The notes below the pieces were generated by a model. The model was not told the DNA's origin and ran no database searches. It saw nothing but the letters and a program-made list of their open reading frames with translations. Shown here piece by piece: positions 6,247 through 58,705 of a stretch of 64,000 bases of DNA. The stretch lies in assembly GCF_056712565.1 (NCBI RefSeq), contig NZ_JBWXXM010000004.1. One strand, 5' to 3'. The position numbers and the translations under genes are program-made. Source of the DNA: a plasmid. How positions within the stretch are numbered: position 1 is the stretch's first letter; every line of letters begins with the position of its first letter.

Positions 6247-6699
6247 ATGTTACTTAACTGGCAGGGACGCCACTTCATGGAAATAAATCACTCACGAATA
6301 ACATCGTACGAGATTGCGGATTACATGATCCGCACTAAATCTCTTCTATCAGCGAAAGAACTCGCAGCAATTCTTGAAAAGGAATACCCGCATCTGGATG
6401 TCGATAAGCGCGATGTTTATCTGCGCTTAAAGGCTATCGCTGTGTCTAAGTATTCGTCTGTTTTGATTGATGACAGTACACGCCCACGTAGATTTCAGAT
6501 CCACTCTCTGAATCCTGAATTCTTTCGCCGCAGCCGCGCTCCGCGCCGGTTTGATGAAAAACTCCAGAACGAACTCTATATGACGCAGGACGAAAAGGAA
6601 CGCCGGGAGCACCAGCCTTGGGTGATGGCGCGTCAACTTTTCAATAAGGTGGTCCGTCAGCACCGTCATTACGGTAATGCCACATCCGCACGTATCTGA
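6247..6699 (+). CDS. late promoter activator (Lpa)-position protein, 150 aa
   Basis: Immediately upstream of pacA with a C1-operator-like site in front, as for P1 lpa; identity by synteny only. Confidence 0.45.
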   Translation: MLLNWQGRHFMEINHSRITSYEIADYMIRTKSLLSAKELAAILEKEYPHLDVDKRDVYLRLKAIAVSKYSSVLIDDSTRPRRFQIHSLNPEFFRRSRAPRRFDEKLQNELYMTQDEKERREHQPWVMARQLFNKVVRQHRHYGNATSARI

Positions 6700-6785
6700 T
6701 TGATTGCTTGCCCGTTCCGGGCCTTTTGACATGTGACTTTCGTTACCCTCGCGTCAAAAAGAGTTTTATACGAAAGGAAGCATAA

Positions 6786-7978
6786 GTGACCTGGGACGAT
6801 CACAAGAAGAATTTTGCTCGCCTGGCGCGAGATGGTGGTTACACCATCGCACAATATGCCGCCGAGTTTAATCTCAACCCAAACACCGCACGTCGTTATC
6901 TCCGTGCATTCAAAGAAGACACCGGAACAGCGGACAGCCGTAAGCCAAATAAGCCTGTCAGAAAACCACTAAAAAGCATGATCATTGATCACGCTAATGA
7001 TCAACGTGCAGGTGATCACATTGTGGCTGAAATGGCTGAAAAACAAAGAGTTAATGCTGTTGTCAGTGCCGCAGTCGAGAACGCGAAGCGCCAGAATAAG
7101 CGCATAAATGATCGTTCTGATGATCATGACGTGATCACCCGCGCCCACCGGACCTTACGTGATCGCCTGGAACGCGACACCCTGGATGATGATGGTGAAC
7201 GCTTTGAATTCGAAGCTGGCGATTACCTGATAGATAACGTTGAAGCGCGGAAGGCCGCGCGCGCTATGTTGCGTCGGTCCGGGGCTGATGTTCTGGAAAC
7301 CACTCTTCTGGAAAAGTCTCTCTCTCATCTCCTTATGCTGGAGAACGCCAGGGATACGTGTATTCGCTTGGTTCAGGAAATGCGCGATCAGCAAAAAGAC
7401 GATGATGAAGGAACTCCGCCTGAATACCGTATCGCGAGCATGCTAAACAGCTGTTCCGCGCAGATAAGCAGCCTGATCAACACCATTTACAGCATCCGGA
7501 ATAACTATCGAAAAGAAAGCCGGGAGGCGGAAAAGCACGCTTTGTCTATGGGGCAAGCTGGCATTGTAAGCTGGCATACGAACGAAAGCGTGAAAACAAC
7601 TGGTCAGTGCTGGAGGCAGCTGAATTCATCGAGGCGCATGGAGGGAAAGTACCGCCCCTGATGCTGGAGCAAATCAAAGCCGATCTGCGTGCTCCTAAGA
7701 CCAATACCGATGATGAGGAAAGGCAAACAGCCGTCGGTGGCCCTTCTCTTGAAGATCTGGACAAAGTTGCGCGAGAACGGGCCGCCAACCGCCGCGCCGA
7801 TGCCGCATTGTGGATTGAGCAGCGTAGGGAAGAAATCGCCGATATCGTTGATACAGGCGGTTATGGAGATGTTGATACTGAAGGTGTATCAAACGACCCA
7901 TGGCTGGAACAAGACCTGGACGAAGACGAGGAGGAAGACGAAGAAGTTACCCGCAAGCTATACGGGGATGATGATTAA
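6786..7978 (+). CDS. pacA: terminase small subunit PacA, reading frame broken in this sequence (ORFs 6786-7661 and 7607-7978)
   Basis: Contains the pac hexamer cluster; directly precedes pacB; total span 1193 nt (one short of a multiple of 3); the second frame reads continuously upstream to about 7580. Confidence 0.65.
6979..7137. other. pac packaging site: 4 + 3 TGATCA/G hexamers flanking the cleavage region
   Basis: TGATCA at 6979, 6986, 6998, 7013 and TGATCG/TGATCA at 7109, 7121, 7132; each contains a Dam GATC; the 4+3 layout is that of P1 pac. Confidence 0.75.
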
Positions 7979-9462
7979 TGGCCAGAAGTTGCGTAACGGA
8001 TCCACGTTGGCGCGAGCTGGTGGCGCTATATCGTTATGACTGGATTGCTGCCGCTGATGTTTTGTTCGGCAAAACACCTACCTGGCAGCAGGATCTGATT
8101 ATTGAGTCTGTGCAGGAACAGGGTAGCAAGACATCTGTTTCGTCTGGTCACGGTACCGGGAAATCAGACATGACTTCTATCATGATCATGTTGTTCATAA
8201 TCATGTATCCAGGTGCCCGTGCCATTATCGTTGCGAACAAAATTCAGCAGGTAATGACCGGTATATTCAAGTACATCAAGATAAACTGGGCTACTGCCAC
8301 CAGCCGTTTCCCATGGCTTGCTGATTATTTTGTTCTGACAGAAACCGCTTTCTATGAGATTACTGGTAAAGGTGTATGGACTGTAGTACCGAAGGGCTTT
8401 CGTCTGGGAAGTGAAGAAGCTCTCGCCGGTGAACACGCAGATCATCTTCTGTATATTATCGATGAAGCCTCCGGTGTCAGTGATAGAGCTTTCGGTATCA
8501 TCACCGGTGCTCTTACCGGACAGGATAACCGCATCTTATTGCTGTCACAGCCTACACGCCCAAGCGGCTATTTCTACGATACACACCATAAACTGGCCAA
8601 GCGTCCTGGTAACCCTGATGGCGTTTATACGGCGATCACGCTTAACAGTGAGGAATCACCGTTGGTAACGCCAGCATTTATCAAAATGAAGCTGGCGGAG
8701 TACGGCGGGCGTGATAACCCTATGTACATGATTAAGGTACGCGGCCTATTCCCTAAATCACAGGATGGCTTCCTTCTTGGACGTGATGAGGTTGAACGTG
8801 CGACGCGGCGGAAAGTCAAGATTGCCAAAGGATGGGGCTGGCTTGCATGTGTGGACGTTGCTGGTGGTACGGGACGGGATAAGTCCGTTATCAATATCAT
8901 GATGGTGTCCGGCCAGAGAAATAAACGCCGTGTAATCAACTATCGAATGCTGGAATACACAGACGTTACAGAAACGCAGCTTGCCGCCAAAATTTTCGCA
9001 GAATGTAATCCTGAGCGATTCCCAAATATCACCATAGCGATAGACGGCGATGGGCTGGGTAAAGCAACGGCGGATCTGATGTACGAGTATTATGGTATTA
9101 CCGTACAGCGTATACGCTGGGGTAAAAAGATGCATAGCCGTGAAGATAAGAGCCTGTACTTTGATAAACGTGCTTATGCCAACGTTCAAGCCGCAGAGGC
9201 CGTAAAATCTGGTCGTATGAGACTGGATAAGGGTAATGAAACTATTGAGGAAGCGTCGAAAATCCCTGTAGGGATTAACTCCGCAGGTCAATGGAAGGTG
9301 ATGAGTAAGGAGGATATGAAGAAAAAACTCAACCTGCACTCACCAGACCATTGGGATACATATTGTTTCGCTATGCTGGCGGATTATGTTCCCCAGGATG
9401 AAGTGCTTAGCGTCGAAGACGAAGCGCAGGTTGATGAAGCTCTGGCATGGCTTAATGAATAA
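7978..9462 (+). CDS. pacB: terminase large subunit PacB
   Basis: 494-aa product; follows pacA; terminase-like ATPase region. Confidence 0.85.
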
Positions 9463-9486
9463 CTCATTGACCATGCCGGATGGAAA

Positions 9487-10338
9487 CTATTGCGCGCTTT
9501 CGGGGTTGTCGTTTACTGGCTGCCCTTTCTTAGTTTTACGGCTGCGCGTAACTGATGCGGCTGATTTGACCTTTTTCTCTTCGCGAGTGATGGCAATTTG
9601 TTTTTTTACATTTTCAATATCTGCCAGGCGATATATTTTTGCCTGCGGCCAGCGGTCGCAGATGATCGGTTCTATAGAGTCATAAAGGCTAAATTTTGCT
9701 TTCTCGAATTCACCGTTGATGATAATTCCATCACGGAGAGTTTCATCGCAGATAAACACACCACATAGCGGCACATGGTAACTAACTGATTTACCATCAT
9801 TGTAGTTAGGGCTACTAGAAATGTAATGGACGCGCAGCATTGTTTCGCTAAAGCCGTGTACGCGCATACGGAATTTTTCATCCTCCGGGTACTGCTTCAT
9901 TAGCTCTTTTGTTGCTTCCAGGTTCTCTATGTATTTCGCACTGTGCTCATTGATCCCTGCGCTTTTCTGGATGCGAATGTCCTTATCAATCAGATGAATA
10001 ATGCGGCCAGCGGTCATGTTGACGCTGTTCACAGCTTCTGTCTGATAAGTCGTAACCTTACGCACACCGCGAAGGATGTTAGGTACTGGATATAAAATAG
10101 TCTTTGGGATATTGAGGTCTGGGTACTGTTCCAGTTCCCGCGCCATTAAAGTCCATTTATCAATTTCAGCCTGAATGCTGTCAGTTTCTTTGAACGGCAG
10201 AACGACAACCGGGCGTACAGGACGACCGTCGCTGGCGGCATCAACGTGTTGGGCGCGTGCAACAGCTTTTTTTAGAAAGAGATCCCTGAAGCTGACGAAC
10301 TCCTGGTACAGTTGTTCGCCGTAGACATAATTTATCAT
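9487..10338 (-). CDS. c1: C1 repressor of lysogeny
   Basis: 283-aa product (length of P1 C1); convergent with pacB, downstream of coi, operators nearby. Confidence 0.85.
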   Translation of the reverse strand: MINYVYGEQLYQEFVSFRDLFLKKAVARAQHVDAASDGRPVRPVVVLPFKETDSIQAEIDKWTLMARELEQYPDLNIPKTILYPVPNILRGVRKVTTYQTEAVNSVNMTAGRIIHLIDKDIRIQKSAGINEHSAKYIENLEATKELMKQYPEDEKFRMRVHGFSETMLRVHYISSSPNYNDGKSVSYHVPLCGVFICDETLRDGIIINGEFEKAKFSLYDSIEPIICDRWPQAKIYRLADIENVKKQIAITREEKKVKSAASVTRSRKTKKGQPVNDNPESAQ

Positions 10339-10360
10339 TGATCCTCCTCCAGAATTGACA

Positions 10361-10403
10361 TGGCCAACAACTCACAGCGGATTACACTGGGAGTTGTTGG
10401 CCA
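10361..10403 (-). promoter_or_regulatory. perfect 13-bp inverted repeat in the coi-c1 intercistronic region
   Basis: tggccaacaactc ...17 nt... gagttgttggcca. Confidence 0.35.
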
Positions 10404-10448
10404 CCATTATAGAAGGATCCAACGAAAATAATAGATTTATTAGTGCAT

Positions 10449-10658
10449 TTATTGTGAGTCTGGCTGGTTAGTGGCCATGAGATATTCGATTGTGTCAGTG
10501 AGATCATCCAGGTCGTCTTGGGTGATGCGGTACTCCTGATTGGATATCTTTGAGTAGTGTTCAGCAATGGCGCGGGCAGCGTCGGTTTCGGCGGGGTCTA
10601 CAGATAAAGCGTTAGAGCAATGTCTAACGTCGTCGATGGTTGGTGGAATGAAAGCCAT
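10449..10658 (-). CDS. coi: Coi, C1 inactivator
   Basis: 69-aa product directly upstream of c1 on the same strand. Confidence 0.75.
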   Translation of the reverse strand: MAFIPPTIDDVRHCSNALSVDPAETDAARAIAEHYSKISNQEYRITQDDLDDLTDTIEYLMATNQPDSQ

Positions 10659-35209: not shown

Positions 35210-35535
35210 TTCCCGCCTCCCTTTTTCACCAAACTTGTAAGAACATTCAGAATGCTATCGATATTCACTCGTTTCATCCCTGAAATCACCTCATGACCGT
35301 TATTGCTGGCTATCGTTACCATTAAGTACGTAATTGATAACTCCCAGCCCTCGTGTTGCCCCAATAGGTACGCCACCGCGCCAGCTGTCACTGCAACAAA
35401 GATCTCCGTAACCAATCCCAACAAATTGCCAGACTGGCGACCGTCTCGGACATCCATCAGGAACGTGCCTATCCCACCAATTACTGAAAGCAGGAGCGCA
35501 ATAGCAACTGGAGCTAATTCCTGTGTGTCAAGCAC
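35206..35535 (-). CDS. holin-like membrane protein (lydA-like)
   Basis: 109-aa product with two or three hydrophobic helices (LAPVAIALLLSVIGGIGTFLM, IFVAVTAGAVAYLLG) and charged C-terminus. Confidence 0.5.
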   Translation of the reverse strand: MLDTQELAPVAIALLLSVIGGIGTFLMDVRDGRQSGNLLGLVTEIFVAVTAGAVAYLLGQHEGWELSITYLMVTIASNNGHEVISGMKRVNIDSILNVLTSLVKKGGGK

Positions 35536-35609
35536 AAGTTCCCTCCTACGTTGTCAGGAGGTAATGGTATGCAAAGTAACTTCTCAACCGGTTATGTTGC
35601 ATAAGAGAC

Positions 35610-35873
35610 TTACCTATTCAACCGACTTTTGGAACCTTCAATAATAAGCCTGCTATTGGCGCTGAAAATAAGAACCATGCAGCTCTGAAGGCTTTCATTC
35701 ATGTCCTTATATTCCGCGAGATACATGCCAATAAAGCCAGCAAGTACGGCGGAAATACATTCGGCCAGCAATTTCTTGCATGAAGACTCGTAACGGTTTT
35801 CACATAGCCCACTCAAATACGAATACACCCCACCAAGAAGGGATAACATCACGATATGTACATAAAATGTCAT
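35610..35873 (-). CDS. small membrane protein (87 aa), first gene of the lyd/dar operon
   Basis: Two hydrophobic segments (VHIVMLSLLGGVYSYLSGL, ISAVLAGFIGMYLA). Confidence 0.35.
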   Translation of the reverse strand: MTFYVHIVMLSLLGGVYSYLSGLCENRYESSCKKLLAECISAVLAGFIGMYLAEYKDMNESLQSCMVLIFSANSRLIIEGSKSRLNR

Positions 35874-36000
35874 TTTTTACCTATACAACAGTAAGTTGAA
35901 CAACATTTGAGAACGGTATGCACTTTGTGATTTCCACACACACTGGTTTTGTTAATTAAAACCTGTAGCTTGCAATAAATAACGATAGTGGGCAGAAAAT

Positions 36001-36185
36001 ATGCTAATAGGCTATGTACGCATATAGACAAATGAACAAAACACAGCTATGCAGTGAAAAGCACTTGAAAGCGCAGGATGTGAGCTAATTTTTGCGAATA
36101 AGGCGAGCAGCAAAAAAGCTGGGCACCCTGGGTTAAAAAAGGTTCTGCGTATGCTTTCCAGAGGTGATACCCTAGTCTCGGACTA
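36001..36185 (+). pseudogene. degenerate 5' fragment of a Cin/Gin/Hin-family serine invertase gene, inverted relative to the adjacent invertase
   Basis: Translation MLIGYVRI*TNEQNTAMQ*KALESAGCELIFANKASSKKAGHPGLKKVLRMLSRGDTLVSD* aligns to invertase residues 1-61 with two in-frame stops. Confidence 0.6.
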
Positions 36186-36212
36186 GGGACAACATTTCGA
36201 GAACAGTTTTCA

Positions 36213-36641
36213 TTAGCGGTCAGCAGGCGCTAGATACATCGAATTGATGTGCCGCGCGATAAATGTACCTATTCTATCAAGATAAATTACACCGACGCGG
36301 CAAGCACCCATGACATGAAAAAAGAAACGCCCCATGGGTGTTGATGTGTCAATACTGTCTGTCAGACTACGGAAATTAACACCTTTTTCCCGCAACTCCT
36401 CTATAAGCGTGATAAGGTGTTTCATACTTCTGCCAAGCCTATCCAGCTTCCAGACAACCAGCGTATCTCCTTCTGATAACGTTCTGAGCAGCTTTTTCAA
36501 GCCTGGTCTGGCTGACTTTGTTCCGCTTATTTTATCTTCAAAAATCAGTTCACATCCTGCGCAGTTCAGTGCATTTCTTTGTAAATCTGTGTTTTGGTCA
36601 TTTGTTGACACACGAATGTAGCCAATTTGCATGAAAAACAA
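36213..36641 (-). CDS. cin: Cin/Min-family serine DNA invertase, C-terminally truncated (homology ends after about residue 113 at about nt 36301)
   Basis: MQIGYIRVSTNDQNTDLQRNALNCAGCELIFEDKISGTKSARPGLKKLLRTLSEGDTLVVWKLDRLGRSMKHLITLIEELREKGVNFRSLTDSIDTSTPMGRFFFHVMGA matches the Gin/Hin/Cin catalytic domain; the next 29 residues are unrelated and the HTH domain is absent. Confidence 0.75.
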   Translation of the reverse strand: MFFMQIGYIRVSTNDQNTDLQRNALNCAGCELIFEDKISGTKSARPGLKKLLRTLSEGDTLVVWKLDRLGRSMKHLITLIEELREKGVNFRSLTDSIDTSTPMGRFFFHVMGACRVGVIYLDRIGTFIARHINSMYLAPADR

Positions 36642-36692
36642 CCTCTTTGTTTAGTTAAAAATACATCGTTGGTATAGGTAGGGATTAAGACT

Positions 36693-36717
36693 AAAACGTT
36701 GGTTTGGGGGAAGGCTC
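36693..36717 (+). other. invertase crossover site xs-1 (cix/mix-like), starts cassette tfc-1
   Basis: aaaacgTTggtttgggggaaggctc; core AACGTTGGTTT resembles the Hin/Gin/Cin family core AAACC-NN-GGTTT; 62 bp from the divergent invertase start. Confidence 0.55.
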
Positions 36718-37171
36718 GGCACTGCCCGTTGGTGTACCTGTTCCATGGCCCTCAGCCACACCACCAACGGGGTGGCTGAAATGCAATGGTGCAGCATTTT
36801 CTTCTGAAAAGTACCCAAATCTGGCAAAGGTTTACCCTACTAATAAATTGCCGGATCTACGGGGCGAATTTATTCGCGGCTGGGATGACGGGCGGGGGAT
36901 TGACTCTGGCCGTAATTTATTATCTGCACAGAATGATGCAATTCAGAATATTGTTGGTTCTTTCGGGCGTACTCAGCTTTTTAGAGATGTACTTAGTTCA
37001 GGGCCATTTAGTCAACATGGTCAAGTATTATCTACAGGCCTAAAGGAAACGGAAATTATTGAGGGTTATGGCTCTTATAACTGGACATTCGACGCCTCTC
37101 GCTCAGTTCGTACAGCATCTGAAACCCGCCCCCGTAATATTGCATTTAATTACATCGTAAGGGCGGCATAA
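36704..37171 (+). CDS. silent tail-fibre C-terminal cassette tfc-1 (TTG start, no promoter)
   Basis: Begins (M/L)GEGSALPVGVPVPWPSATPPTGWLKCNGAAFSSEKYPNLAKVYPTNKLPDLRGEFIRGWDDGRG, same as the junction of S, then a unique 80-aa core, ends ETRPRNIAFNYIVRAA. Confidence 0.65.
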   Translation: MGEGSALPVGVPVPWPSATPPTGWLKCNGAAFSSEKYPNLAKVYPTNKLPDLRGEFIRGWDDGRGIDSGRNLLSAQNDAIQNIVGSFGRTQLFRDVLSSGPFSQHGQVLSTGLKETEIIEGYGSYNWTFDASRSVRTASETRPRNIAFNYIVRAA

Positions 37172-37195
37172 AAACGTTGGTTTGGGGGAAGGCTC
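37171..37195 (+). other. crossover site xs-2
   Basis: aaaacgttggtttgggggaaggctc directly after the tfc-1 stop. Confidence 0.55.
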
Positions 37196-37658
37196 AGCAT
37201 TGCCCGTTGGCGTGCCCGTTCCGTGGCCCTTAGAAACACCGCCAACGGGGTGGCTGAAATGTAACGGAGCAGCATTTTCTTCTGAAATGTATCCCAAACT
37301 GGCAAAGGCCTACCCCACCAATAAATTACCGGATTTACGGGGAGAATTTATTCGCGGCTGGGATGATGGGCGCGGGGTGGATGCGGGACGTGCTTTATTG
37401 AGCATTCAGACAGGAATGCTGGAAAAGCACCGACATATTGTTGTAGCCAATGATGGTTACGACACAAAAGATGAATGGGAGCTGGCGACAATTTTCAAAA
37501 AAACATACACACAAGGACGGGGGCTTGATGCCTCAAATACAGGAGGGAATTTGATTCCATCACCGACACTTCATTCTCGAGGGAGTATTGGTAATACTGG
37601 CGGGAGTGAAACCCGTCCACGAAATATCGCATTTAATTACATCGTAAGGGCGGCATAA
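37182..37658 (+). CDS. silent tail-fibre C-terminal cassette tfc-2
   Basis: Same conserved head (PLETPP/SSEMYPKLAKAYPT allele) and tail ETRPRNIAFNYIVRAA, distinct core. Confidence 0.65.
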   Translation: MGEGSALPVGVPVPWPLETPPTGWLKCNGAAFSSEMYPKLAKAYPTNKLPDLRGEFIRGWDDGRGVDAGRALLSIQTGMLEKHRHIVVANDGYDTKDEWELATIFKKTYTQGRGLDASNTGGNLIPSPTLHSRGSIGNTGGSETRPRNIAFNYIVRAA

Positions 37659-37682
37659 AAACGTTGGTTTGGGGGAAGGCTC
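37658..37682 (+). other. crossover site xs-3
   Basis: aaaacgttggtttgggggaaggctc. Confidence 0.55.
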
Positions 37683-38133
37683 TGCACTGCCTGTTGGTGT
37701 GCCCGTTCCGTGGCCCTTAGAAACACCACCAACGGGCTGGCTAAAATGCAATGGTGCAGCATTTTCTTCTGAAATGTATCCCAAACTGGCAAAGGCCTAC
37801 CCCACCAATAAATTACCGGATTTACGCGGTGAGTTTATCCGTGGTTGGGATGATGGGCGAGGTGTGGATGCGGGAAGGGTCATCTTAAGCATACAGGGGT
37901 GGTTACAGGAAGTCATTATCATAATATTCGGTCATGGGACGCGTGGATAACACGGTATTGGTGCCATTAATTGACATGAGGGGGGGATAGTCTGTTGTCG
38001 ACAGATAACGCCGTCAGGCATTTTCAGCGATTAATGGTAAATTTCACCAGTCAACTCTGTAGGTGATGGTATAAATTTTGTTGCTGTCAGGCCGCGAAAT
38101 ATCGCATTTAATTACATCGTAAGGGCGGCATAA
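37669..38133 (+). pseudogene. degenerate duplicate of cassette tfc-4 (frameshifted cassette tfc-3)
   Basis: Near-identical to 38144-38602 at DNA level but with indels (ggttacagg vs ggttaacagg); ORF stops after 93 codons although the terminal RPRNIAFNYIVRAA coding block is present at 38090-38133. Confidence 0.55.
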
Positions 38134-38157
38134 AAACGTTGGTTTGGGGGAAGGCTC
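38133..38157 (+). other. crossover site xs-4
   Basis: aaaacgttggtttgggggaaggctc. Confidence 0.55.
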
Positions 38158-38602
38158 TGCACTGCCTGTTGGTGTGCCCGTTCCGTGGCCCTTAGAAACA
38201 CCACCAACGGGCTGGCTAAAATGCAATGGTGCAGCATTTTCTTCTGAAATGTATCCCAAACTGGCAAAGGCCTACCCCACCAATAAATTACCGGATTTAC
38301 GCGGTGAGTTTATCCGTGGTTGGGATGATGGGCGAGGTGTGGATGCGGGAAGGGTCATCTTAAGCATACAGGGGTGGTTAACAGGAAGTCATTATCATAA
38401 TATTCGGTCATGGGACGCGTGGGATAACACGGTATTGGTGCCAAATGACAGAGGGGGGGATAGTCTGTTGTCGACAGATAACGCCGTCCGGCAAGGAGCG
38501 ATTAATGGTAAATTTACCAGTCAATACAGAACGGAGTTATCTGGGGGGAATGAAACCCGCCCACGTAACATTGCCTTCAATTATATTGTGAGAGCAGCAT
38601 AA
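38144..38602 (+). CDS. silent tail-fibre C-terminal cassette tfc-4, coupled to a tail fibre assembly gene
   Basis: 152-aa cassette; stop overlaps the ATG of the following tfa gene (taATGg). Confidence 0.65.
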   Translation: MGEGSALPVGVPVPWPLETPPTGWLKCNGAAFSSEMYPKLAKAYPTNKLPDLRGEFIRGWDDGRGVDAGRVILSIQGWLTGSHYHNIRSWDAWDNTVLVPNDRGGDSLLSTDNAVRQGAINGKFTSQYRTELSGGNETRPRNIAFNYIVRAA

Positions 38603-39213
38603 TGGATAATGCGATATTAAATAGCGAACTTATAGCCATACAGGCAGGAAACATTATCGTTTATAACTATGATGGTGGTAATCGGGAATATATTTCTGCA
38701 TCAACTGAATATCTTGCTGTTGGCGTTGGTATTCCGGCAAATTCTTGTTTGGATGCTCCAGGCTCACATAAAGCAGGTTATGCGATTCTCCGTTCAGAGG
38801 ATTTAAGTTCATGGGAGTATGTGCCAGATCATCGTGGCGAAACTGTCTATAGCATTGACACTGGGAATCCCGAAGAAATCACGGTGTTGGGTGACTATCC
38901 GGAAAATACAACCACTATCGCCCCGCTAACACCATACGACAAATGGGATGGAGAGAAATGGGTGGTTGATACTGAGGCTCAACATAGTGCAGCTGTAGAG
39001 GCAGCAGAAACAAAACGTCAGTCATTGATTGATACTGCGATGGATTCCATTAGTCTGATTCAGTTGAAATTACGGGCTGGACGGAAGTTGACGCAGGCAG
39101 AAACCACGCAGCTTAACTCCGTGCTAGATTATATAGACGAGCTGAACGCGATGGATTTAACCACGGCACCAGATCTCAACTGGCCTGAAAAACAACTTTC
39201 TACAGCCAGTTGA
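38602..39213 (+). CDS. tail fibre assembly chaperone (Tfa / U-like)
   Basis: 203-aa product; Tfa-like C-terminal region DYIDELNAMD...WPE; translationally coupled to tfc-4, as U follows Sv in Mu/P1. Confidence 0.65.
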   Translation: MDNAILNSELIAIQAGNIIVYNYDGGNREYISASTEYLAVGVGIPANSCLDAPGSHKAGYAILRSEDLSSWEYVPDHRGETVYSIDTGNPEEITVLGDYPENTTTIAPLTPYDKWDGEKWVVDTEAQHSAAVEAAETKRQSLIDTAMDSISLIQLKLRAGRKLTQAETTQLNSVLDYIDELNAMDLTTAPDLNWPEKQLSTAS

Positions 39214-39218
39214 TATAA

Positions 39219-39716
39219 TTAATCCGCCCTCACAATATAATTAAATGCAATATTACGAGGGCGGGTTTCTAAGCCAGCAGTACCTAAATTAGCTACGGAC
39301 TGTTTATATGTTTTAAAAGTTCCATAATTAGGGGCTGGCAATCCTGCATCGCTTGTGTTCCCCCATCTGATAACTCCCGTATTACCACTAGTAGCCCATG
39401 CCTCGTCAAAGTAGAAATTAATTGAGCGGTCAGTTGCTACGGTTGATTTTGACGGTAATCCGTGAGCATGATCCTCCGTTGCATATCCTTGCTCGCTTAA
39501 AATAGAGCGACCAGAGTCAATCCCTCGCCCATCATCCCAGCCACGGATAAACTCACCGCGTAAATCAGGTAATTTTAACGTTGGGTAAACCTTTGCCAGA
39601 TTTGGGTACTTTTCAGAAGAAAATGCTGCACCATTGCATTTCAGCCACCCCGTTGGCGGTGTGGCTGAGGGCCATGGAATAGGTACACCAACGGGCAGCG
39701 CCGAGCCTTCCCCTAA
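39219..39716 (-). CDS. silent tail-fibre C-terminal cassette tfc-5 (no start codon: TTA at the crossover site)
   Basis: Open frame LGEGSALPVGVPIPWPSATPP...ETRPRNIAFNYIVRAD; missing from the ORF track because it begins TTA-GGG instead of TTG-GGG. Confidence 0.55.
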   Translation of the reverse strand, partial: LGEGSALPVGVPIPWPSATPPTGWLKCNGAAFSSEKYPNLAKVYPTLKLPDLRGEFIRGWDDGRGIDSGRSILSEQGYATEDHAHGLPSKSTVATDRSINFYFDEAWATSGNTGVIRWGNTSDAGLPAPNYGTFKTYKQSVANLGTAGLETRPRNIAFNYIVRAD

Positions 39717-39727
39717 ACCAACGTTTT
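39703..39727 (-). other. crossover site xs-5 (TTA variant, like the site in S)
   Basis: Plus strand gagccttcccctaaaccaacgtttt. Confidence 0.55.
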
Positions 39728-40155
39728 CATGCCGCCCTTACGATATAATTAAACGCAATGTTACGAGGACGAATGGTTACATAATTAACCCCATCACCTC
39801 GTGAAGGCCCTGCAAATGAAAAACGGGAAAATCCTGGTTGGTTAGAAACAATTTGGTCATAGTTATTGATTGAATGACCAGACCCAATGTCGAAATTACC
39901 TCCGTAATGAGAAAAACTTGTACCATCCTGCCCTGAAAGCAGGGTACGTCCCGCATCAATCCCGCGCCCATCATCCCAGCCACGGATAAATTCACCGCGT
40001 AAATCCGGTAATTTATTGGTGGGGTAGGCTTTTGCCAGTTTGGGATACATTTCAGAAGAAAATGCTGCACCATTGCATTTTAGCCAGCCCGTTGGTGGTG
40101 TTTCTAAGGGCCACGGAACGGGCACACCAACAGGCAATGCTGAGCCTTCCCCCAA
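39727..40155 (-). CDS. silent tail-fibre C-terminal cassette tfc-6
   Basis: 142-aa; conserved head and tail, unique core. Confidence 0.65.
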   Translation of the reverse strand: MGEGSALPVGVPVPWPLETPPTGWLKCNGAAFSSEMYPKLAKAYPTNKLPDLRGEFIRGWDDGRGIDAGRTLLSGQDGTSFSHYGGNFDIGSGHSINNYDQIVSNQPGFSRFSFAGPSRGDGVNYVTIRPRNIAFNYIVRAA

Positions 40156-40166
40156 ACCAACGTTTT
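40142..40166 (-). other. crossover site xs-6
   Basis: Plus strand gagccttcccccaaaccaacgtttt. Confidence 0.55.
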
Positions 40167-40669
40167 TATGCCGCCCTTACGATGTAATTAAATGCAACGT
40201 TGCGAGGGCGAGTTTCTGTACCTACATTTCCACTAATTTCACCATAACGTTTAACACTACGAGAGCTAATAGCTCGTAGTGAGGAAGGCACCTTATGACC
40301 GGGTTCGTCCGTTTTAACTATTCCCCCGTCACCGTATGTAGCTAGTATTCCTGGATTTACGCCTTCCCGTGCACTTCCTGCGGCGAGTCCGTCCCCTGTC
40401 CATAATTCCATATAGTGTGCATGGTCCAAAATTGTGTGTGGCTGCCAATTAAGCAAAGCGCGGCCAGCATCCACCCCGCGCCCATCATCCCAGCCACGGA
40501 TAAATTCACCGCGTAAATCAGGTAATTTTAACGTTGGGTAAACCTTTGCCAGATTTGGGTACTTTTCAGAAGAAAATGCTGCACCATTGCATTTCAGCCA
40601 CCCCGTTGGCGGTGTGGCTGAGGGCCATGGAATAGGTACACCAACGGGCAGCGCCGAGCCTTCCCCTAA
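40166..40669 (-). CDS. silent tail-fibre C-terminal cassette tfc-7 (no start codon; ORF track shows only its GTG-started distal 102 aa)
   Basis: Continuous frame LGEGSALPVGVPIPWPSATPP...GRGVDAGRALLNWQ...ETRPRNVAFNYIVRAA. Confidence 0.55.
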   Translation of the reverse strand, partial: LGEGSALPVGVPIPWPSATPPTGWLKCNGAAFSSEKYPNLAKVYPTLKLPDLRGEFIRGWDDGRGVDAGRALLNWQPHTILDHAHYMELWTGDGLAAGSAREGVNPGILATYGDGGIVKTDEPGHKVPSSLRAISSRSVKRYGEISGNVGTETRPRNVAFNYIVRAA

Positions 40670-40680
40670 ACCAACGTTTT
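40656..40680 (-). other. crossover site xs-7 (TTA variant)
   Basis: Plus strand gagccttcccctaaaccaacgtttt. Confidence 0.55.
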
Positions 40681-41141
40681 TATGCCGCCCTTACGATATA
40701 ATTAAAGGCAATATTACGAGGACGGTTTTCATTAGCTGTTGGCACGACACGAGAGGCGTCGAATCCAAGGTCATCGGTTTTGCCTATATCAGTTGTGTTA
40801 TTCGGCATTCTCGCAGATCGTGTTCCTGCATCATAAAAAGCCCCTCTGATTGCATCAAAAGACATGCCAATCCCGCCATCTGCGAACCCCTCAATATTTC
40901 TTATTGCATCCCCCTGTGAAGATAATAATTGTCGCCCGGCATCCACACCACGTCCGTCATCCCAGCCACGAATAAATTCACCGCGTAAATCCGGCAATTT
41001 ATTAGTAGGGTAAACCTTTGCCAGATTTGGGTACTTTTCAGAAGAAAATGCTGCTCCGTTACATTTCAGCCACCCCGTTGGCGGAGTGGCTGAGGGCCAC
41101 GGAACAGGTACGCCAACAGGCAATGCTGAGCCTTCCCCCAA
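40680..41141 (-). CDS. silent tail-fibre C-terminal cassette tfc-8
   Basis: 153-aa; conserved head and tail, unique core. Confidence 0.65.
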   Translation of the reverse strand: MGEGSALPVGVPVPWPSATPPTGWLKCNGAAFSSEKYPNLAKVYPTNKLPDLRGEFIRGWDDGRGVDAGRQLLSSQGDAIRNIEGFADGGIGMSFDAIRGAFYDAGTRSARMPNNTTDIGKTDDLGFDASRVVPTANENRPRNIAFNYIVRAA

Positions 41142-41152
41142 ACCAACGTTTT
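41128..41152 (-). other. crossover site xs-8
   Basis: Plus strand gagccttcccccaaaccaacgtttt. Confidence 0.55.
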
Positions 41153-41505
41153 TATGTGGCCCTTACAATGTAATTAAAAGCAACGTTGCGGGGGCGCATT
41201 GATATCCATGCCCCGGTAAAATTATCCTCTGCCGTCCTTTGAGTGCCTGTTATGGAGTTATCTGATGATGCTGGAACATAATCGCTATTATCTCCTGCTT
41301 TAGGATTAGCAGGGTTTCCAACAGTTATAACAGAATCAGCAGCGATACCTACTTTGACATTAGTAGTCAGATCGACACCGTAATAATCCTGCAAAGCTGT
41401 ACGAATAAATGTTGCAGTCTGACCACTTAGCAATGAACGCCCTGTATCAATCCCTCTCGAATCATCCCAACCACGGATAAACTCACCGCGTAAATCAGGT
41501 AATTT
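41152..41505 (-). CDS. distal part of the tail-fibre cassette now in expression position (tfc-9), in frame with S but separated from it by a TAA at 41506-41508
   Basis: Frame continues from the S stop: *KLPDLRGEFIRGWDDSRGIDTGRSLLSGQTATFIR...SMRPRNVAFNYIVRAT. Confidence 0.55.
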   Translation of the reverse strand, partial: KLPDLRGEFIRGWDDSRGIDTGRSLLSGQTATFIRTALQDYYGVDLTTNVKVGIAADSVITVGNPANPKAGDNSDYVPASSDNSITGTQRTAEDNFTGAWISMRPRNVAFNYIVRAT

Positions 41506-43155
41506 TTACGTGGGGTAAACCTTTGCCAGATTTGGGTACTTTTCAGAAGAAAATGCTGCTCCGTTACATTTCAGCCACCCCGTTGGTGGTGTGGCGGAGG
41601 GCCATGGAACAGGTACACCAACGGGCAGCGCCGAGCCTTCCCCTAAACCAAGGTAATCAAGAACGCTATGAATACTGGTCTTACCAAGAATGGCGCGTCC
41701 AACACTTGTCAATGCAGTTAACGCGGCACGATCAACACCTGTGAAATAAGGGAGTTTATCTGCTGCTGTAGCTAGTGCCGCTAGAGCAGTGAGCGTAGCG
41801 TCTGCCGCTTGCTTTCCATTAGCCAAATCATATGCAGCCTTGACAGCTTTCGGTGTGGCGGCCAGCACTTCAGACGTGCTGTTAGTGGCACTACTGAGCT
41901 GAGTGATGCCTTTCGCTGTCAATGAAGCTGTTGGCACACCAGTGATCTGATTCCAGGGATGTGTATGACTGGATGGTGCCTTTCCGGCTGCTAGATCGTA
42001 TGCAGCTTTAACCGCTTTTGGAGTTGCAGCTAATGTTTCAGAAGTGCTGTTGGTGTCGCTACTGAGCTGAACTATCCCTTTTTGTGTCGTGGTTGCATCC
42101 TGGGCTGTATACTTCCCGTTAGCCAAATCATATGCAGCCTTGACAGCTTTCGGTGTGGCGGCCAGCACTTCGGACGTACTGTTAGTGGCACTACTGAGCT
42201 GAGTGATGCCTTTCGCTGTCAATGAAGCTGTTGGCACACCAGTGATCTGATTCCAGGGATGTGTATGACTGGATGGTGCCTTTCCGGCTGCTAGATCGTA
42301 TGCAGCTTTAACCGCTTTTGGAGTTGCAGCTAATCTGTTGGTGTCGCTACTGAGCTGAACTATCCCTTTTTGTGTCGTGGTTGCATCCTGGGCTGTATAC
42401 TTCCCGTTAGCCAAATCATATGCAGCCTTGACAGCTTTCGGTGTGGCGGCCAGCACTTCGGACGTACTGTTAGTGGCACTACTGAGCTGAACTAATCCCT
42501 TTTGCGTTGTGCTTGCATCCTGCGCCGTATACTTGCTTTTCGCCAGATCGTAGGCTTTTTTAACTGCCAGCGAACTCGCAGCAACATCACTTCTGGTACT
42601 GGTTACAGAGTCTGAAATATCAATGCCGATCGTGCGGTTGATACGCTCGGATGTATCAATCATCTCTTGAGTAATGGTAGATACGCCAGCAGGGATATTC
42701 ACCGTACAAACCAGCAGTTCCCCATCACCTAACTGATATGAATCGGTATAGGTTCTGGCAACAAATTCAGCTGCATGAATATGTGACGCGGTATTAACCT
42801 GATAGGTATCTTCTCCAAGAAGGTATCTTCCCTTCAGCACAATTGCATATTTCTTGCCTGCGTTAAGTGCAAGAGAGATATCCTTACGATGCTGAATAGT
42901 TACCTGGTAGAATTCACCAATATCCACTGACGCCGCGCCAGCGGTTTTATCTCCATCCACTGAGGTGATTAACAGGTTCATCCCACCGCCAGGCTTAGGC
43001 AAGAAACCAGCATAAAATCCCGGGTCAACAATTCCCCTGAATTTTCGGTTTAGAGCGGCTGACAGATATGGTTCGTGGTATTGCACATCAGCCACCAGAG
43101 CCAACGACTCGGGTGATGGGTAAGTAACCGATGTAACAACTGTAACGTCATTCAT
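41506..43155 (-). CDS. tail fibre protein S (constant N-terminal part plus start of the expressed cassette), ends at an in-frame ochre codon inside the conserved cassette head
   Basis: Start MNDVTVV behind AAGGA; internal repeats of the phage tail-fibre repeat motif (SSATNSTSEVLAATPKAVKAAYDLA); ends ...LGEGSALPVGVPVPWPSATPPTGWLKCNGAAFSSEKYPNLAKVYPT*. Confidence 0.7.
   Translation of the reverse strand: MNDVTVVTSVTYPSPESLALVADVQYHEPYLSAALNRKFRGIVDPGFYAGFLPKPGGGMNLLITSVDGDKTAGAASVDIGEFYQVTIQHRKDISLALNAGKKYAIVLKGRYLLGEDTYQVNTASHIHAAEFVARTYTDSYQLGDGELLVCTVNIPAGVSTITQEMIDTSERINRTIGIDISDSVTSTRSDVAASSLAVKKAYDLAKSKYTAQDASTTQKGLVQLSSATNSTSEVLAATPKAVKAAYDLANGKYTAQDATTTQKGIVQLSSDTNRLAATPKAVKAAYDLAAGKAPSSHTHPWNQITGVPTASLTAKGITQLSSATNSTSEVLAATPKAVKAAYDLANGKYTAQDATTTQKGIVQLSSDTNSTSETLAATPKAVKAAYDLAAGKAPSSHTHPWNQITGVPTASLTAKGITQLSSATNSTSEVLAATPKAVKAAYDLANGKQAADATLTALAALATAADKLPYFTGVDRAALTALTSVGRAILGKTSIHSVLDYLGLGEGSALPVGVPVPWPSATPPTGWLKCNGAAFSSEKYPNLAKVYPT
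41633..41658 (-). other. crossover site xs-9 inside S (constant/variable junction)
   Basis: Plus strand gagccttcccctaaaccaaggtaatc; core ACCTTGGTTTAGG, reverse-complement-symmetric around TT like Hin/Gin/Cin-family sites. Confidence 0.55.
41815..42530. repeat. about 300-bp tandem direct repeats (2.4 copies) inside S
   Basis: 41821-42120 and 42121-42405 nearly identical (second copy lacks 15 bp near 42336), third partial copy to about 42530. Confidence 0.7.
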
Positions 43156-43166
43156 CAAGCATATCC

Positions 43167-43601
43167 TTATGCTGTAGTCGAGTTTATGGCCATAACTGCG
43201 GTATATGTTTTGCCCACATACAGCGAGTCTTCCTGGACACAAATAATGGCGATTGGCTTATTCTCGTTATCCAGAACAACCAGAGTGTTGAATGGGTAGT
43301 TTTTCCCTTCCTGCAACTGACTTTGATCAAGGTCCATTCGGACAGTAATTATCCCGCCTGAGTAGGTTGGGACGAGGTTGATGGTGCAAAATTGACTGGT
43401 CAGTTCTGCCAGATCGAAAGCCTTTGGCAGTTCTCCAATCTCATAAGTGCCATCTCCTTTCTTAGTAACCAGTGAACTGGTACCGAAAACGGCCTTGCTG
43501 ATTAAAAATCGAGAGCCTTTGTTAATGGACGATTCAGCGCGCCGCTGATAGTAATAGTCCAACAACTGACTCTTATAGAGGTTTGTTGAGACGTCAGACA
43601 T
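43167..43601 (-). CDS. tail fibre-associated protein (R-position), 144 aa
   Basis: Immediately upstream of S on the same strand; synteny. Confidence 0.45.
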   Translation of the reverse strand: MSDVSTNLYKSQLLDYYYQRRAESSINKGSRFLISKAVFGTSSLVTKKGDGTYEIGELPKAFDLAELTSQFCTINLVPTYSGGIITVRMDLDQSQLQEGKNYPFNTLVVLDNENKPIAIICVQEDSLYVGKTYTAVMAINSTTA

Positions 43602-43679
43602 GATTTTCCCTAATCAATGTTGTGAAGCCTCATTGTAAGATAAGTAACTTGTCACCCCGCCCTGCGGACGGGGTGATTG

Positions 43680-44519
43680 TCACGCATCGCTATCCAACAG
43701 CAAATCATCTGCGCGGGTGCGATCAAACGTAGGCGTTGCTTTCACAATAGTGCCGCCCGGCGTTGCAGTGATCGGGGCGTTAATCGACGTAACTTCAGTA
43801 AGCGAAGTTGTATCCGAAGTTTCAAACCAGCAGAATGCTTTTTCGGTATCAGAAATCTCATTCAAAGTGATCATGTCGGCCTGTTCATTTACAACAACCG
43901 ACAAATAGAGCGTAAGCCCATCAAACACTATATGCAGTGGCAGTAGAGGCTTTACGAACTGATTAAACTTTCTGAGAATTTCTTCTGTAATTGCGGACTG
44001 ATCTATCGTTCCAGTAATACCCATTGTCCGGGCCAGGTCGTTTATGGGAATACTGATCATTCCTCTGGAAGTCAGAAACATCTCGCCGAATGTGCCGCCG
44101 GTGGTTTCCAGTGTGCTTTCTGGAATCAGGACCGTGCCATAGGGATGACGTTCAAAGTCCACCGGAGCATATATGGGATCCCATAAAACCGATATACCGT
44201 TAAATTCGCGATAAATTGTCTGGTTTATAGGGCGTTCAGTACCCTTAAAATGGATCTCATCAAACCGCTGTTGTAACAACATCGGAACGGAAGATGAATT
44301 CGACGTTCTGATAGTAAAAAACTGGCCAAGTTCATTTGTCCTAGTCTCCAGATCCTCCTTGCTCATGGAGAAAATAGACTTCCGGTTGGTAATTCGCTCC
44401 AACCATGGGTCAACAAAGGTGTCCATCATTGACTGAACCAAATCAGCCAATGATTTATAAAGTAATGACTTTTGCTTAGCTGATGTAAGCCGGTTATTAA
44501 ACCAGGAACGCTGCATCAC
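43680..44519 (-). CDS. baseplate/tail structural protein (gene 16-position), 279 aa
   Basis: ORF track; synteny within tail gene block. Confidence 0.4.
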   Translation of the reverse strand: MMQRSWFNNRLTSAKQKSLLYKSLADLVQSMMDTFVDPWLERITNRKSIFSMSKEDLETRTNELGQFFTIRTSNSSSVPMLLQQRFDEIHFKGTERPINQTIYREFNGISVLWDPIYAPVDFERHPYGTVLIPESTLETTGGTFGEMFLTSRGMISIPINDLARTMGITGTIDQSAITEEILRKFNQFVKPLLPLHIVFDGLTLYLSVVVNEQADMITLNEISDTEKAFCWFETSDTTSLTEVTSINAPITATPGGTIVKATPTFDRTRADDLLLDSDA

Positions 44520-54165: not shown

Positions 54166-54292
54166 ATTTTTTTAGCTTCATATGCTACATTAACTTGCTT
54201 GCGTGCTAATGCATTTTCGGTTTATCCTAAACAGGCATCTTAGTAAAACGGATGCCGGGATTGGAACCCCGGATAATGCAAAAGGCGACATA

Positions 54293-54314
54293 GACGCCAA
54301 AAGCGTCTTTTTTT
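54293..54314 (+). terminator. intrinsic terminator on the plus strand with no protein gene upstream
   Basis: gacgc caaaa gcgtc followed by T7. Confidence 0.5.
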
Positions 54315-54717
54315 GTGTCATGCCATCGCACAACCATACGTAGCACATAGCTCCGAGATCAATGGTAGTGCTGGCTGGGCTGCCGAAAGGCAGGCCGGTT
54401 CCCTTTTGCGCCGGTAGTTCCAACCCAGTCAGTGCTACCGCCATTGAGATTGGAACCTCACGCGGTAGCTCCTTAAATTAGCAAAAGGAGGCTGCCATTG
54501 TGGCTACTATCCCTACCCCTACTCATCCTGAATTTATCTGGCGCTTTTACTCCTGCCAAAAACACCACTATCACTTCGTTATCGCAGCAACAGAAGACGA
54601 AGCACGCTCTCAATTGCCTGATGGCCCCTGCATTTTTACTGCCCGTTTTTCAACTAACTCGCGCAATTCACTTAGTTACTGGAGCCTCCCCTTCTCTGCC
54701 GACGTTCAGGGGGGTTT

Positions 54718-57890: not shown

Positions 57891-58072
57891 TACAATCGTT
57901 GCGGGTGCTTGAGGCTATCTGCTTCAGGCATTACCCGAAAAGCAGATAGAAGAAAGCCCCAGATAACATTACGCGTCCTGCAAGACGCTTAACATTAATC
58001 TGAGGCCATATCTATGCTTAGCATACGTAGATTAACCCTCTCCCATTTTAAGGAGCAAGGAATTTTTTACTG

Positions 58073-58705
58073 CTATGCCGCATTTCCAATTATGGATTCA
58101 GCGACCAGAACAACCCCATGCTTACTTCGATCTGGGTGTTCACTCCATATCTCGGATTCAGGAATACTTACCCCGTCATAGCAAACACGTTCGCCGTCAA
58201 ACGGGTAATACTGAGCGGCATCGGTGTCGAGGATAAACACTTTTAGCTCGGAAGAGCGACGGGCGATATGTTGCCAAAGAGCTTTTCCACCTTCGTATTG
58301 CTCATTATCACTGAGCAAAACAACACCAGCTTTTGAGGCTACGGTTTCGTAAACAAAAGTAGCTAAACCGACATCCCGGACAGTTCCATCAACCACGATA
58401 CCTTCAATCTGGGCAACATCGCTATCCTCCCAGAACTTCCTTACCAGTACGCCTTCAAGCTGCGGGCGACGTTGAAGTTCAAGAGTAGCGACAACCTTAT
58501 GCCGCATATCACCATCGATAACAGAAGGCGCAGCCTCTATTACAGCTGCAAATGGGGTTTTGGAATCCCATATAACCTGGTAAAGCACACCCTGGATGGT
58601 AACTCCGTCCAGGATCGAAAATCGACGAGCGACAGTACCCGGGGAGTACGACATTGGAATCACAGCCATTTTAGAGTCCCCCTTTAACAGTACAGGCACA
58701 AACAT
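58073..58705 (-). CDS. hypothetical structural-block protein (210 aa)
   Basis: ORF track; AT-rich promoter-like region upstream. Confidence 0.35.
   Translation of the reverse strand: MFVPVLLKGDSKMAVIPMSYSPGTVARRFSILDGVTIQGVLYQVIWDSKTPFAAVIEAAPSVIDGDMRHKVVATLELQRRPQLEGVLVRKFWEDSDVAQIEGIVVDGTVRDVGLATFVYETVASKAGVVLLSDNEQYEGGKALWQHIARRSSELKVFILDTDAAQYYPFDGERVCYDGVSIPESEIWSEHPDRSKHGVVLVAESIIGNAA

Follow-up and report, generated by a model that had tools for sequence, protein, structure and literature searches.

The tail-fibre gene S of a P1-like phage-plasmid runs into a multiple DNA-inversion region which, very probably, is of the Min type known from plasmid p15B, and whose present copy is most likely frozen and its fibre defective. 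The region lies within a 64,000-nucleotide stretch of plasmid DNA (NCBI RefSeq assembly GCF_056712565.1, contig NZ_JBWXXM010000004.1), here called the window, to which all coordinates refer unless another record is named. The constant 5' part of S (Sc) ends at a 26-bp crossover site, and eight further sites each open a promoterless cassette for a collar-type fibre tip. In functional copies, the Din-family serine invertase Min, encoded beside the array and helped by a Fis-dependent enhancer in its own 5' coding region, would exchange strands at the central TT between any two inverted sites, with a presumed change of host range as the outcome. The crossover sites, the continuity of reading frames across them, the rule that their half-sites follow, the permuted arrays of related plasmids and the protein families encoded all come from the analysis itself.

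A search of the window with the 19-nt core TTGGTTTGGGGGAAGGCTC, allowing up to 3 mismatches, returned nine copies, all within 36699-41651, compared with a chance expectation of 0.01. Each copy belongs to a 26-bp site of the form L12-TT-GGTTTRGGGGAA (12 + 2 + 12), with TT as the central dinucleotide throughout; the nine sites span 36687-41663, start 439-514 bp apart, and lie four on the + strand and five on the − strand. The original prediction had set four sites against four more plus the one in S, had compared them with Hin/Gin/Cin crossover sites, and had located the S site where the conserved head of the cassettes starts, and in all of this it agrees with the sites found; the length of 25 bp that it assigned to them was wrong, as they are of the classical 26-bp type. 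The L12-TT-R12 architecture and the common core dinucleotide fit the Din family, in which partner 26-bp sites share an identical 2-bp core (P1 cixL and cixR are comparable) and lie inverted with respect to each other on one molecule. A consensus for Din-type sites, with examples comparable to those of the window, is given in Table 3 of PMC4134206. The G/A variant of the right half-site is only partially associated with the type of core, too loosely to tell site-specific from homologous exchange. A repeat search yielded 4 + 5 direct copies and 20 of the 20 possible inverted pairs of a + with a − copy, 214-310 nt in length and 80-95% complementary.

Each site opens a cassette of 440-515 bp that consists of a common head, a unique core and a common tail. 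The head of about 70 codons, (V/L)GLGEGSALPVGVP...KLPDLRGEFIRGWDDGRG, codes for a Phage Tail Collar domain (PF07484), and the tail, RPRN(I/V)AFNYIVRA(A/D/T), is followed by a stop codon that falls within the left half of the next site; both are as quoted in the original prediction. S reads ...DYL-GLGEG over its own site, all cassettes read GLGEG... in identical register after the TT and, as in p15B Min, it is at the site that the 5' part of S joins, in frame, one or another of the 3' parts. Seven of the nine cassettes are intact and open to the conserved IVRA(A/D) stop, the defective ones being cassette C' and cassette J*, the one at present fused to S. These seven are silent, yet fully open with neither promoter nor ribosome-binding site, which implies selection by way of periodic expression. 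Cassettes E and G, open from site to stop, were not whole in the list of open reading frames because they have no start codon. Over its entire length, cassette I aligned with a short tail fibre of solved structure (PDB chain 9cuy_c, residues 154-303, E = 6e-32), and each cassette therefore encodes a complete tip domain. That cassette D alone has a Tfa gene 3' of it, as had been claimed, is borne out by the Caudo_TAP match of tfa. The constant part Sc is 96% identical to the S gene of P1/P7 over 42467-43300 (834 nt aligning). It contains a near-perfect duplicated block of about 96 aa among its Phage_fiber_2 repeats, and its length differs widely across the relatives examined (L001-L078), in which annotated S coding sequences range from 1482 to 2799 bp.

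Table 1. Features of the inversion region and its surroundings, in order of position in the window.
Feature	Coordinates	Strand	Remarks
psi-cin	36001..36177	+	remnant of the 5' part of a P1-cin-like invertase gene, decayed and interrupted by stops; 63% for residues 1-59 (tblastn)
deletion junction	36302..36303	.	junction of 249-bp deletion; missing bases are positions 6504-6752 of relative L002
min'	36303..36632	−	truncated invertase gene, codons 1-110 only (catalytic domain); tblastn; Resolvase PF00239; phrog_125 DNA invertase
enhancer homologue	36574..36608	−	inside 5' part of min'; homologous to the annotated P1 cin recombinational enhancer, 88.6% over 35 of 72 nt (P1 31678-31749)
crossover site, invertase-proximal	36687..36712	+	AAGACTAAAACG-TT-GGTTTGGGGGAA; fixed outer half is the invertase flank
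cassette A	36699..37171	+	intact, 155 aa
crossover site	37165..37190	+	
cassette B	37177..37658	+	intact, 158 aa
crossover site	37652..37677	+	
cassette C'	37664..38133	+	pseudo-cassette (cassette 3), frameshifted D/H chimera
crossover site	38127..38152	+	bounds central segment
cassette D	38139..38602	+	intact, 152 aa, reading frame itself 38144-38602; other end of central segment; tfa always 3'
tfa	38602..39213	+	sole Tfa/U-like gene; Caudo_TAP PF02413, E = 5e-30; phrog_105; convergent with S here
cassette E	39219..39721	−	intact, without start codon, ends ...IVRAD; one end of central segment
crossover site	39708..39733	−	bounds central segment
cassette F	39727..40160	−	intact, 142 aa
crossover site	40147..40172	−	
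cassette G	40166..40674	−	intact open frame, without start codon
crossover site	40661..40686	−	
cassette I	40680..41146	−	intact, 153 aa; Collar PF07484
crossover site	41133..41158	−	CACATAAAAACG-TT-GGTTTGGGGGAA
cassette J*	41152..41651	−	fused to S at present; in-frame TAA 41506-41508; 9-bp in-frame deletion
crossover site inside S	41638..41663	−	at start of common head; TTCTTGATTACC-TT-GGTTTAGGGGAA; fixed outer half is S
Sc (constant 5' part of S)	41652..43155	−	ATG of MNDVTVV... to half-site TTCTTGATTACC; six Phage_fiber_2 repeats
R	43167..43601	−	intact gene R homologue (tail-fibre assembly/structure), equivalent of P1 R, 5' of S in common late operon; phrog_2032 'tail fiber assembly protein', E = 1e-84

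The half-sites put a constraint on the arrangements that inversion could reach. An ordinary cassette starts with a head (right) half-site and finishes with a tail (left) one, whereas both ends of the central segment (D-tfa / E) are head half-sites; the outer half-sites are fixed, TTCTTGATTACC being contributed by S and AAGACTAAAACG by the invertase flank. Because of this half-site rule only a single type of layout is allowed: S, k co-oriented cassettes, the central segment in either orientation, the rest of the cassettes in the opposite orientation, and the invertase. Under the rule, a breadth-first search of inversions between sites of opposite orientation gave 2 x 8! = 80,640 arrangements and 9 S endings for nine sites, and 240 arrangements and 6 S endings for six. 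The array obeys the rule exactly in the window and in the relatives, and the S outer half-site TTCTTGATTACC identifies the S-side site in 11 of 11 complete arrays, the window included.

The relatives also provide evidence that arrays of this kind are shuffled. In PLSDB, 651 records matched the array region, as did 2,339 records of complete E. coli genomes, and the best matches were nearly all P1/P7-like plasmids of about 95 kb in which runs of genes bear the annotation 'phage tail protein'. The comparison covered eleven complete arrays, again counting the window: one has 2 sites, two have 6, two have 8, five have 9 and one has 10. In each of the 11, a single + block is followed by a single − block and the D-tfa central unit sits where the strand changes; the central segment is found in either orientation among them, and cassette E adjoins D-tfa in seven, is fused to S opposite D-tfa in three and is not recognisable in one. 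A serine invertase flanks every complete relative array. The cores of A, B, D, E, F, G and I have copies elsewhere that are 100% identical and occupy other positions and the other strand, and every one of the 11 core types occurs in at least two of three contexts (S-fused, invertase-proximal and internal), five of them in all three. Plasmid pMCR_SCKP-LL83 (L002) contains eight of the nine window cores, seven of which, together with tfa, are 100% identical, while J is 96% identical. When C' is counted as occupying the slot of H, six inversions separate the window from L002 and six separate it from pS13-1 (L076); distances in the search went up to 7, and this degree of scrambling suggests that the arrays are well mixed.

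The heads of the cassettes vary in a manner of their own. Head alleles (PSATPP/PLETPP, EKYPNLAKV/EMYPKLAKA, and N or L before KLPDL) reassort independently of the cores in the window and L001-L078; core D, for instance, bears ten head signatures, and only the positions beside a core travel with it. The two head alleles of the original prediction, and the inverted homologies that it put at roughly 200 bp, thus exist, the latter as pairs of 214-310 nt, but across relatives the alleles turn out to be mosaics. The mosaic heads, which point to frequent gene conversion, show along with the chimeric C' that gene conversion or unequal exchange takes place among cassettes, and the spread of site number from 2 to 10 is compatible with such processes. 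Homologous recombination thus contributes to change in the array without replacing the site-specific mechanism.

In contrast to its relatives, the window copy does not encode a complete invertase. Residues 1-110 of min' are 100% identical to those of the relatives' 190-aa invertase, the full-length form of which (WP_001165547.1, from a gene of 573 bp) is the exact sequence of UniRef Q05517_ECOLX ('DNA-invertase'); in the Pfam search of min', Resolvase PF00239 was found and a helix-turn-helix (HTH) domain was not. Compared with pGD27-62 (L001) and L002, a 249-bp deletion has taken residues 111-190 including the HTH, the stop codon and 6 bp beyond. The invertase gene is intact in the best 30 E. 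coli records among the matches listed, and no other invertase was found within the 64-kb window. The organization of Din-family enzymes, about 190 aa with an N-terminal resolvase domain and a C-terminal HTH, is therefore present in the relatives and not here, and the locus is a degenerate member of a lineage that has the full invertase. The fibre gene is affected as well. The stop in J arose from TTA→TAA and is present in one of 12 J copies, and three aligned J copies have neither the stop nor the 9-bp deletion; C' resembles D in its head and core, carries at least four indels and, over its last ~85 nt, is identical to the relatives' cassette H. Moreover, tfa is antisense to S in the present arrangement. 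Serine recombinases are not known to bind their sites, or to synapse them, when the E-helix and HTH are missing. Since the invertase lacks both, and since J* ends prematurely, the array is most likely frozen while making a tipless S, that is, unable to switch and defective in its fibre unless the host supplies a Pin-type invertase in trans; the seven intact tips could be reached only with a Pin/Cin/Min-type invertase supplied in this way. The original prediction of an inversion library holds as to the identity of the system, but the invertase deletion, the stop in J and the frameshifts of cassette 3 had been missed.

The segment in the 5' part of min' that is homologous to the P1 cin enhancer is a candidate recombinational enhancer, as judged from this similarity. 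A second invertase-derived stretch, psi-cin, is nearer to P1 cin than min is, the enhancer region included (88.9% over 63 nt), and it is kept in relatives, being annotated as a frameshifted recombinase in p98222-contig_6 (L006). The psi-cin copy of the enhancer in p15B has reportedly been found inactive.

Given these defects, one has to ask whether the array might still be shuffling in its host by means of a chromosomal or prophage Din invertase (Pin of e14 or similar) that acts in trans and uses the enhancer of min'. Din invertases substitute for one another, and the nine sites are all intact, as is the homologue of the enhancer. A search of 5,426 complete E. coli genomes with a 301-nt probe over the deletion, a probe of which about half is invertase coding sequence, found 190 chromosomal matches, and in 184 records the best match of the probe was at 90-95% identity. 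A prophage of E. coli EC958 with a severely truncated invertase still inverted, and the authors invoked an enzyme supplied in trans (PMC4134206). Such rescue is nevertheless a tentative proposition here, as a second invertase was lacking in the window and the stop in J sits on S, a position from which active switching together with selection for infectivity would tend to remove it. It is unlikely that the 249-bp deletion, the TAA of J and the indels of cassette 3 are errors of sequencing or assembly in a fully functional Min system. Breaks and mis-assembly are common in repeat arrays, within which IMG/VR contigs frequently stop, and several cassettes of relative L003 are annotated as frameshifted; neither the stop codon nor the deletion junction is present in any other sequence examined, a 70-nt probe for the junction having no match in the 72,556 plasmids of PLSDB. 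The invertase gene, however, is single-copy and not a repeat, the 803-bp flank at 35500-36302 is 100% identical to L001 and L002 as far as the junction, which is clean, a stop codon made by a T→A substitution is atypical of homopolymer error, and the array as a whole fits the half-site rule exactly.

Two further explanations would dispense with site-specific inversion altogether. According to one, RecA-dependent homologous recombination between the inverted heads of 214-310 bp is the main driver and the 26-bp motifs are mere conserved coding sequence, for which one could cite the twenty inverted pairs of 80-95% identity, the mosaic heads that are unlinked to cores (as on core D), and the evidence from C' that unequal or homologous exchange happens. 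Conserved coding sequence would not account for the left half-site, which is kept 3' of each cassette's stop codon and also at the invertase-proximal site, which follows no cassette; in addition, a serine invertase always stands beside the array in complete relatives, and near-identical sites in EC958 invert at the site itself (PMC4134206), so that this explanation seems very improbable. The other, in which the cassettes are paralogous pseudogenes of fibre tips whose tandem array stays static, without programmed rearrangement, might draw on the fact that eight of the nine cassettes are unexpressed now, that E and G lack start codons and that two of the nine are broken. It is scarcely credible, and was rejected, in view of the seven silent cassettes that stay open from site to stop without promoter or ribosome-binding site and the identical cores that are permuted among plasmids.

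The Min-type reading has to contend, aside from the chance of sequencing error, with several points that weigh against it. The movement of cassettes onto S is deduced from comparison among plasmids and not from isomers in a single population, and homologous recombination or gene conversion could explain part of the permutation. Moreover, the Min-array model leaves unexplained how a lone Tfa serves the arrangements in which tfa is antisense. A scan of 35800-43700 for promoters and terminators gave fewer promoter-like matches than shuffled sequence, and no sigma-70-like promoter was prominent for antisense tfa.

Comparison with known systems places the locus, very probably, in the p15B Min system, in an enlarged form with nine sites that many sequenced P1-like plasmids share. 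The Min system of p15B, from E. coli 15T-, was described by Sandmeier, Iida, Arber and colleagues between 1990 and 1992; six sites and 240 isomers were reportedly found, and inversion was reportedly dependent on Min. Like the window, p15B is a P1-related plasmid prophage with the order R, S constant part, 3' cassettes, min, psi-cin and lydA, and both have a serine invertase gene, 26-bp sites and, beside min, more than two sites that delimit overlapping invertible segments; the half-site rule yields the figure of 240 for six sites. The P1 genome record lists homologies to p15B (ECP15BG) in the same order as in the window, which begins with the R/S 5' end and continues with the enhancer inside the invertase gene, another cin-like stretch (p15B nt 7147-7408) and lydA. 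A 5-kb segment of L002 is 99% identical, at 92% coverage, to the min region of p15B (PMC5786510). The window differs from p15B in having nine sites and nine 3' ends, with 80,640 arrangements as opposed to 240, and in its truncated invertase, the nonsense codon in J and its chimeric cassette. Between the end of R and the enhancer, the window exceeds p15B in length by about 1.1 kb, presumably on account of three extra cassettes offset by a shorter constant part of S. The assignment to a p15B Min-type multiple inversion, already made by the original prediction, is thus upheld by the sites, the identity of invertase residues 1-110, the permuted relatives and the publication on L002.

The locus also has features in common with two-state switches. 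The Cin/C-segment of P1 and the Gin/G-segment of Mu likewise have a Din serine invertase with an enhancer in the 5' end of its gene, a constant S with alternative 3' parts, and 26-bp sites with a TT/AA core (P1 cixL reads ...AAACC-TT-GGTTTAAGAGAA), but they consist of two sites and one segment with two states, each state has its own U/U' chaperone, and the variable parts are of a non-collar fibre type. In P1, cin is opposite in orientation to min, and a cin remnant is represented by psi-cin in the window. Prophage Phi2 of E. coli EC958 has a two-state switch of tail-collar fibres, for which PacBio reads showed inversion at the sites GAGAGATAAACGTT-GGTTTGGGGGAA and TCCTCAATTACCTT-GGTTTAGGAGAA (PMC4134206), the first resembling the cassette-side sites of the window and the second its S-side site. 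This switch and that of e14 Pin share with the window an inverted head repeat of about 200 bp that encodes the Collar domain, whereas their cassettes number only two, and downstream of each lies a minor fibre or Tfa gene of its own. The shufflons of R64/IncI plasmids (Rci, sfx, pilV) and of bifidobacterial prophages (Rin) also combine a constant 5' part with many invertible 3' cassettes and many isomers (PMC6109161), but they employ a tyrosine recombinase and unrelated sites. A tyrosine-recombinase shufflon of the R64 type was ruled out for the window, where the adjacent recombinase is of the serine resolvase/invertase type and the sites are Din-type; 'shufflon-like', as the region was originally termed, is apt as an analogy of logic and not as a statement of membership. 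The recent literature, searched for accounts of phage-plasmid arrays with many cassettes, gave nothing specific. The present analysis adds the half-site grammar, the count of 80,640 states, the comparative evidence of shuffling and the degenerate state of this copy.

P1-like phage-plasmids spread mcr-1, extended-spectrum beta-lactamase genes and others among Enterobacteriaceae, and the fibre switch would set their host range. The Min arrays of current isolates typically offer about nine exchangeable tips rather than six, and the half-site grammar makes the expressed tip readable from any assembly. It thus helps in the annotation of these plasmids, in which it is routine for each cassette to be mislabelled as a 'phage tail protein' gene in its own right, in the prediction of host range, and in the flagging of copies that are unable to switch or to make a complete fibre. 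The understanding of the inversion mechanism is unchanged by the present finding. A broader and more speculative view, offered with some hesitation, is that such regions act as a two-layer generator, in which inversion would permute cassettes (at least 80,640 arrangements) while gene conversion and unequal exchange in the ~215-bp heads and in the cores would make new tips. Nine- and ten-site arrays would then be normal in present-day P1-like phage-plasmids, one Tfa might serve the collar tips via their invariant RPRN(I/V)AFNYIVRA strand, and the window would represent an array just locked by loss of the invertase HTH. If this were true, the lock would mark a step from infectious phage to pure plasmid.

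L001 has at 7137-8743 a minimal two-site version (S-E / tfa-D / invertase) in an otherwise near-identical backbone; either this is the ancestral switch with two states, or it is derived from a larger array by deletion. In the Salmonella plasmid pS13-1 (L076, CP047090.1; locus 7350-10549), ISApl1 and mcr-1.1 lie between tfa and S, and S is fused to a disrupted cassette E. The mcr-1.1 gene is here inside the outermost crossover sites, and if the invertase were active the resistance gene would invert together with the fibre cassettes. The central segment of L006 (locus 8907-9807) includes a second, convergent tfa and a non-collar tip (VGLGETINKASGAMQKS...) that has only the crossover site and the first residues in common with collar cassettes; a tip of this kind with its own tfa indicates that Min sites can recruit an unrelated tip family along with its chaperone, as in P1 Sv/U. 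Elsewhere in the window, matches above the Rfam gathering score were obtained for isrK (54235-54313), C4 antisense RNA (54358-54445) and sok antitoxin RNA (57903-58077), as would be expected of a backbone with an ImmI immunity region of the P1 type and a stability module like hok/sok.

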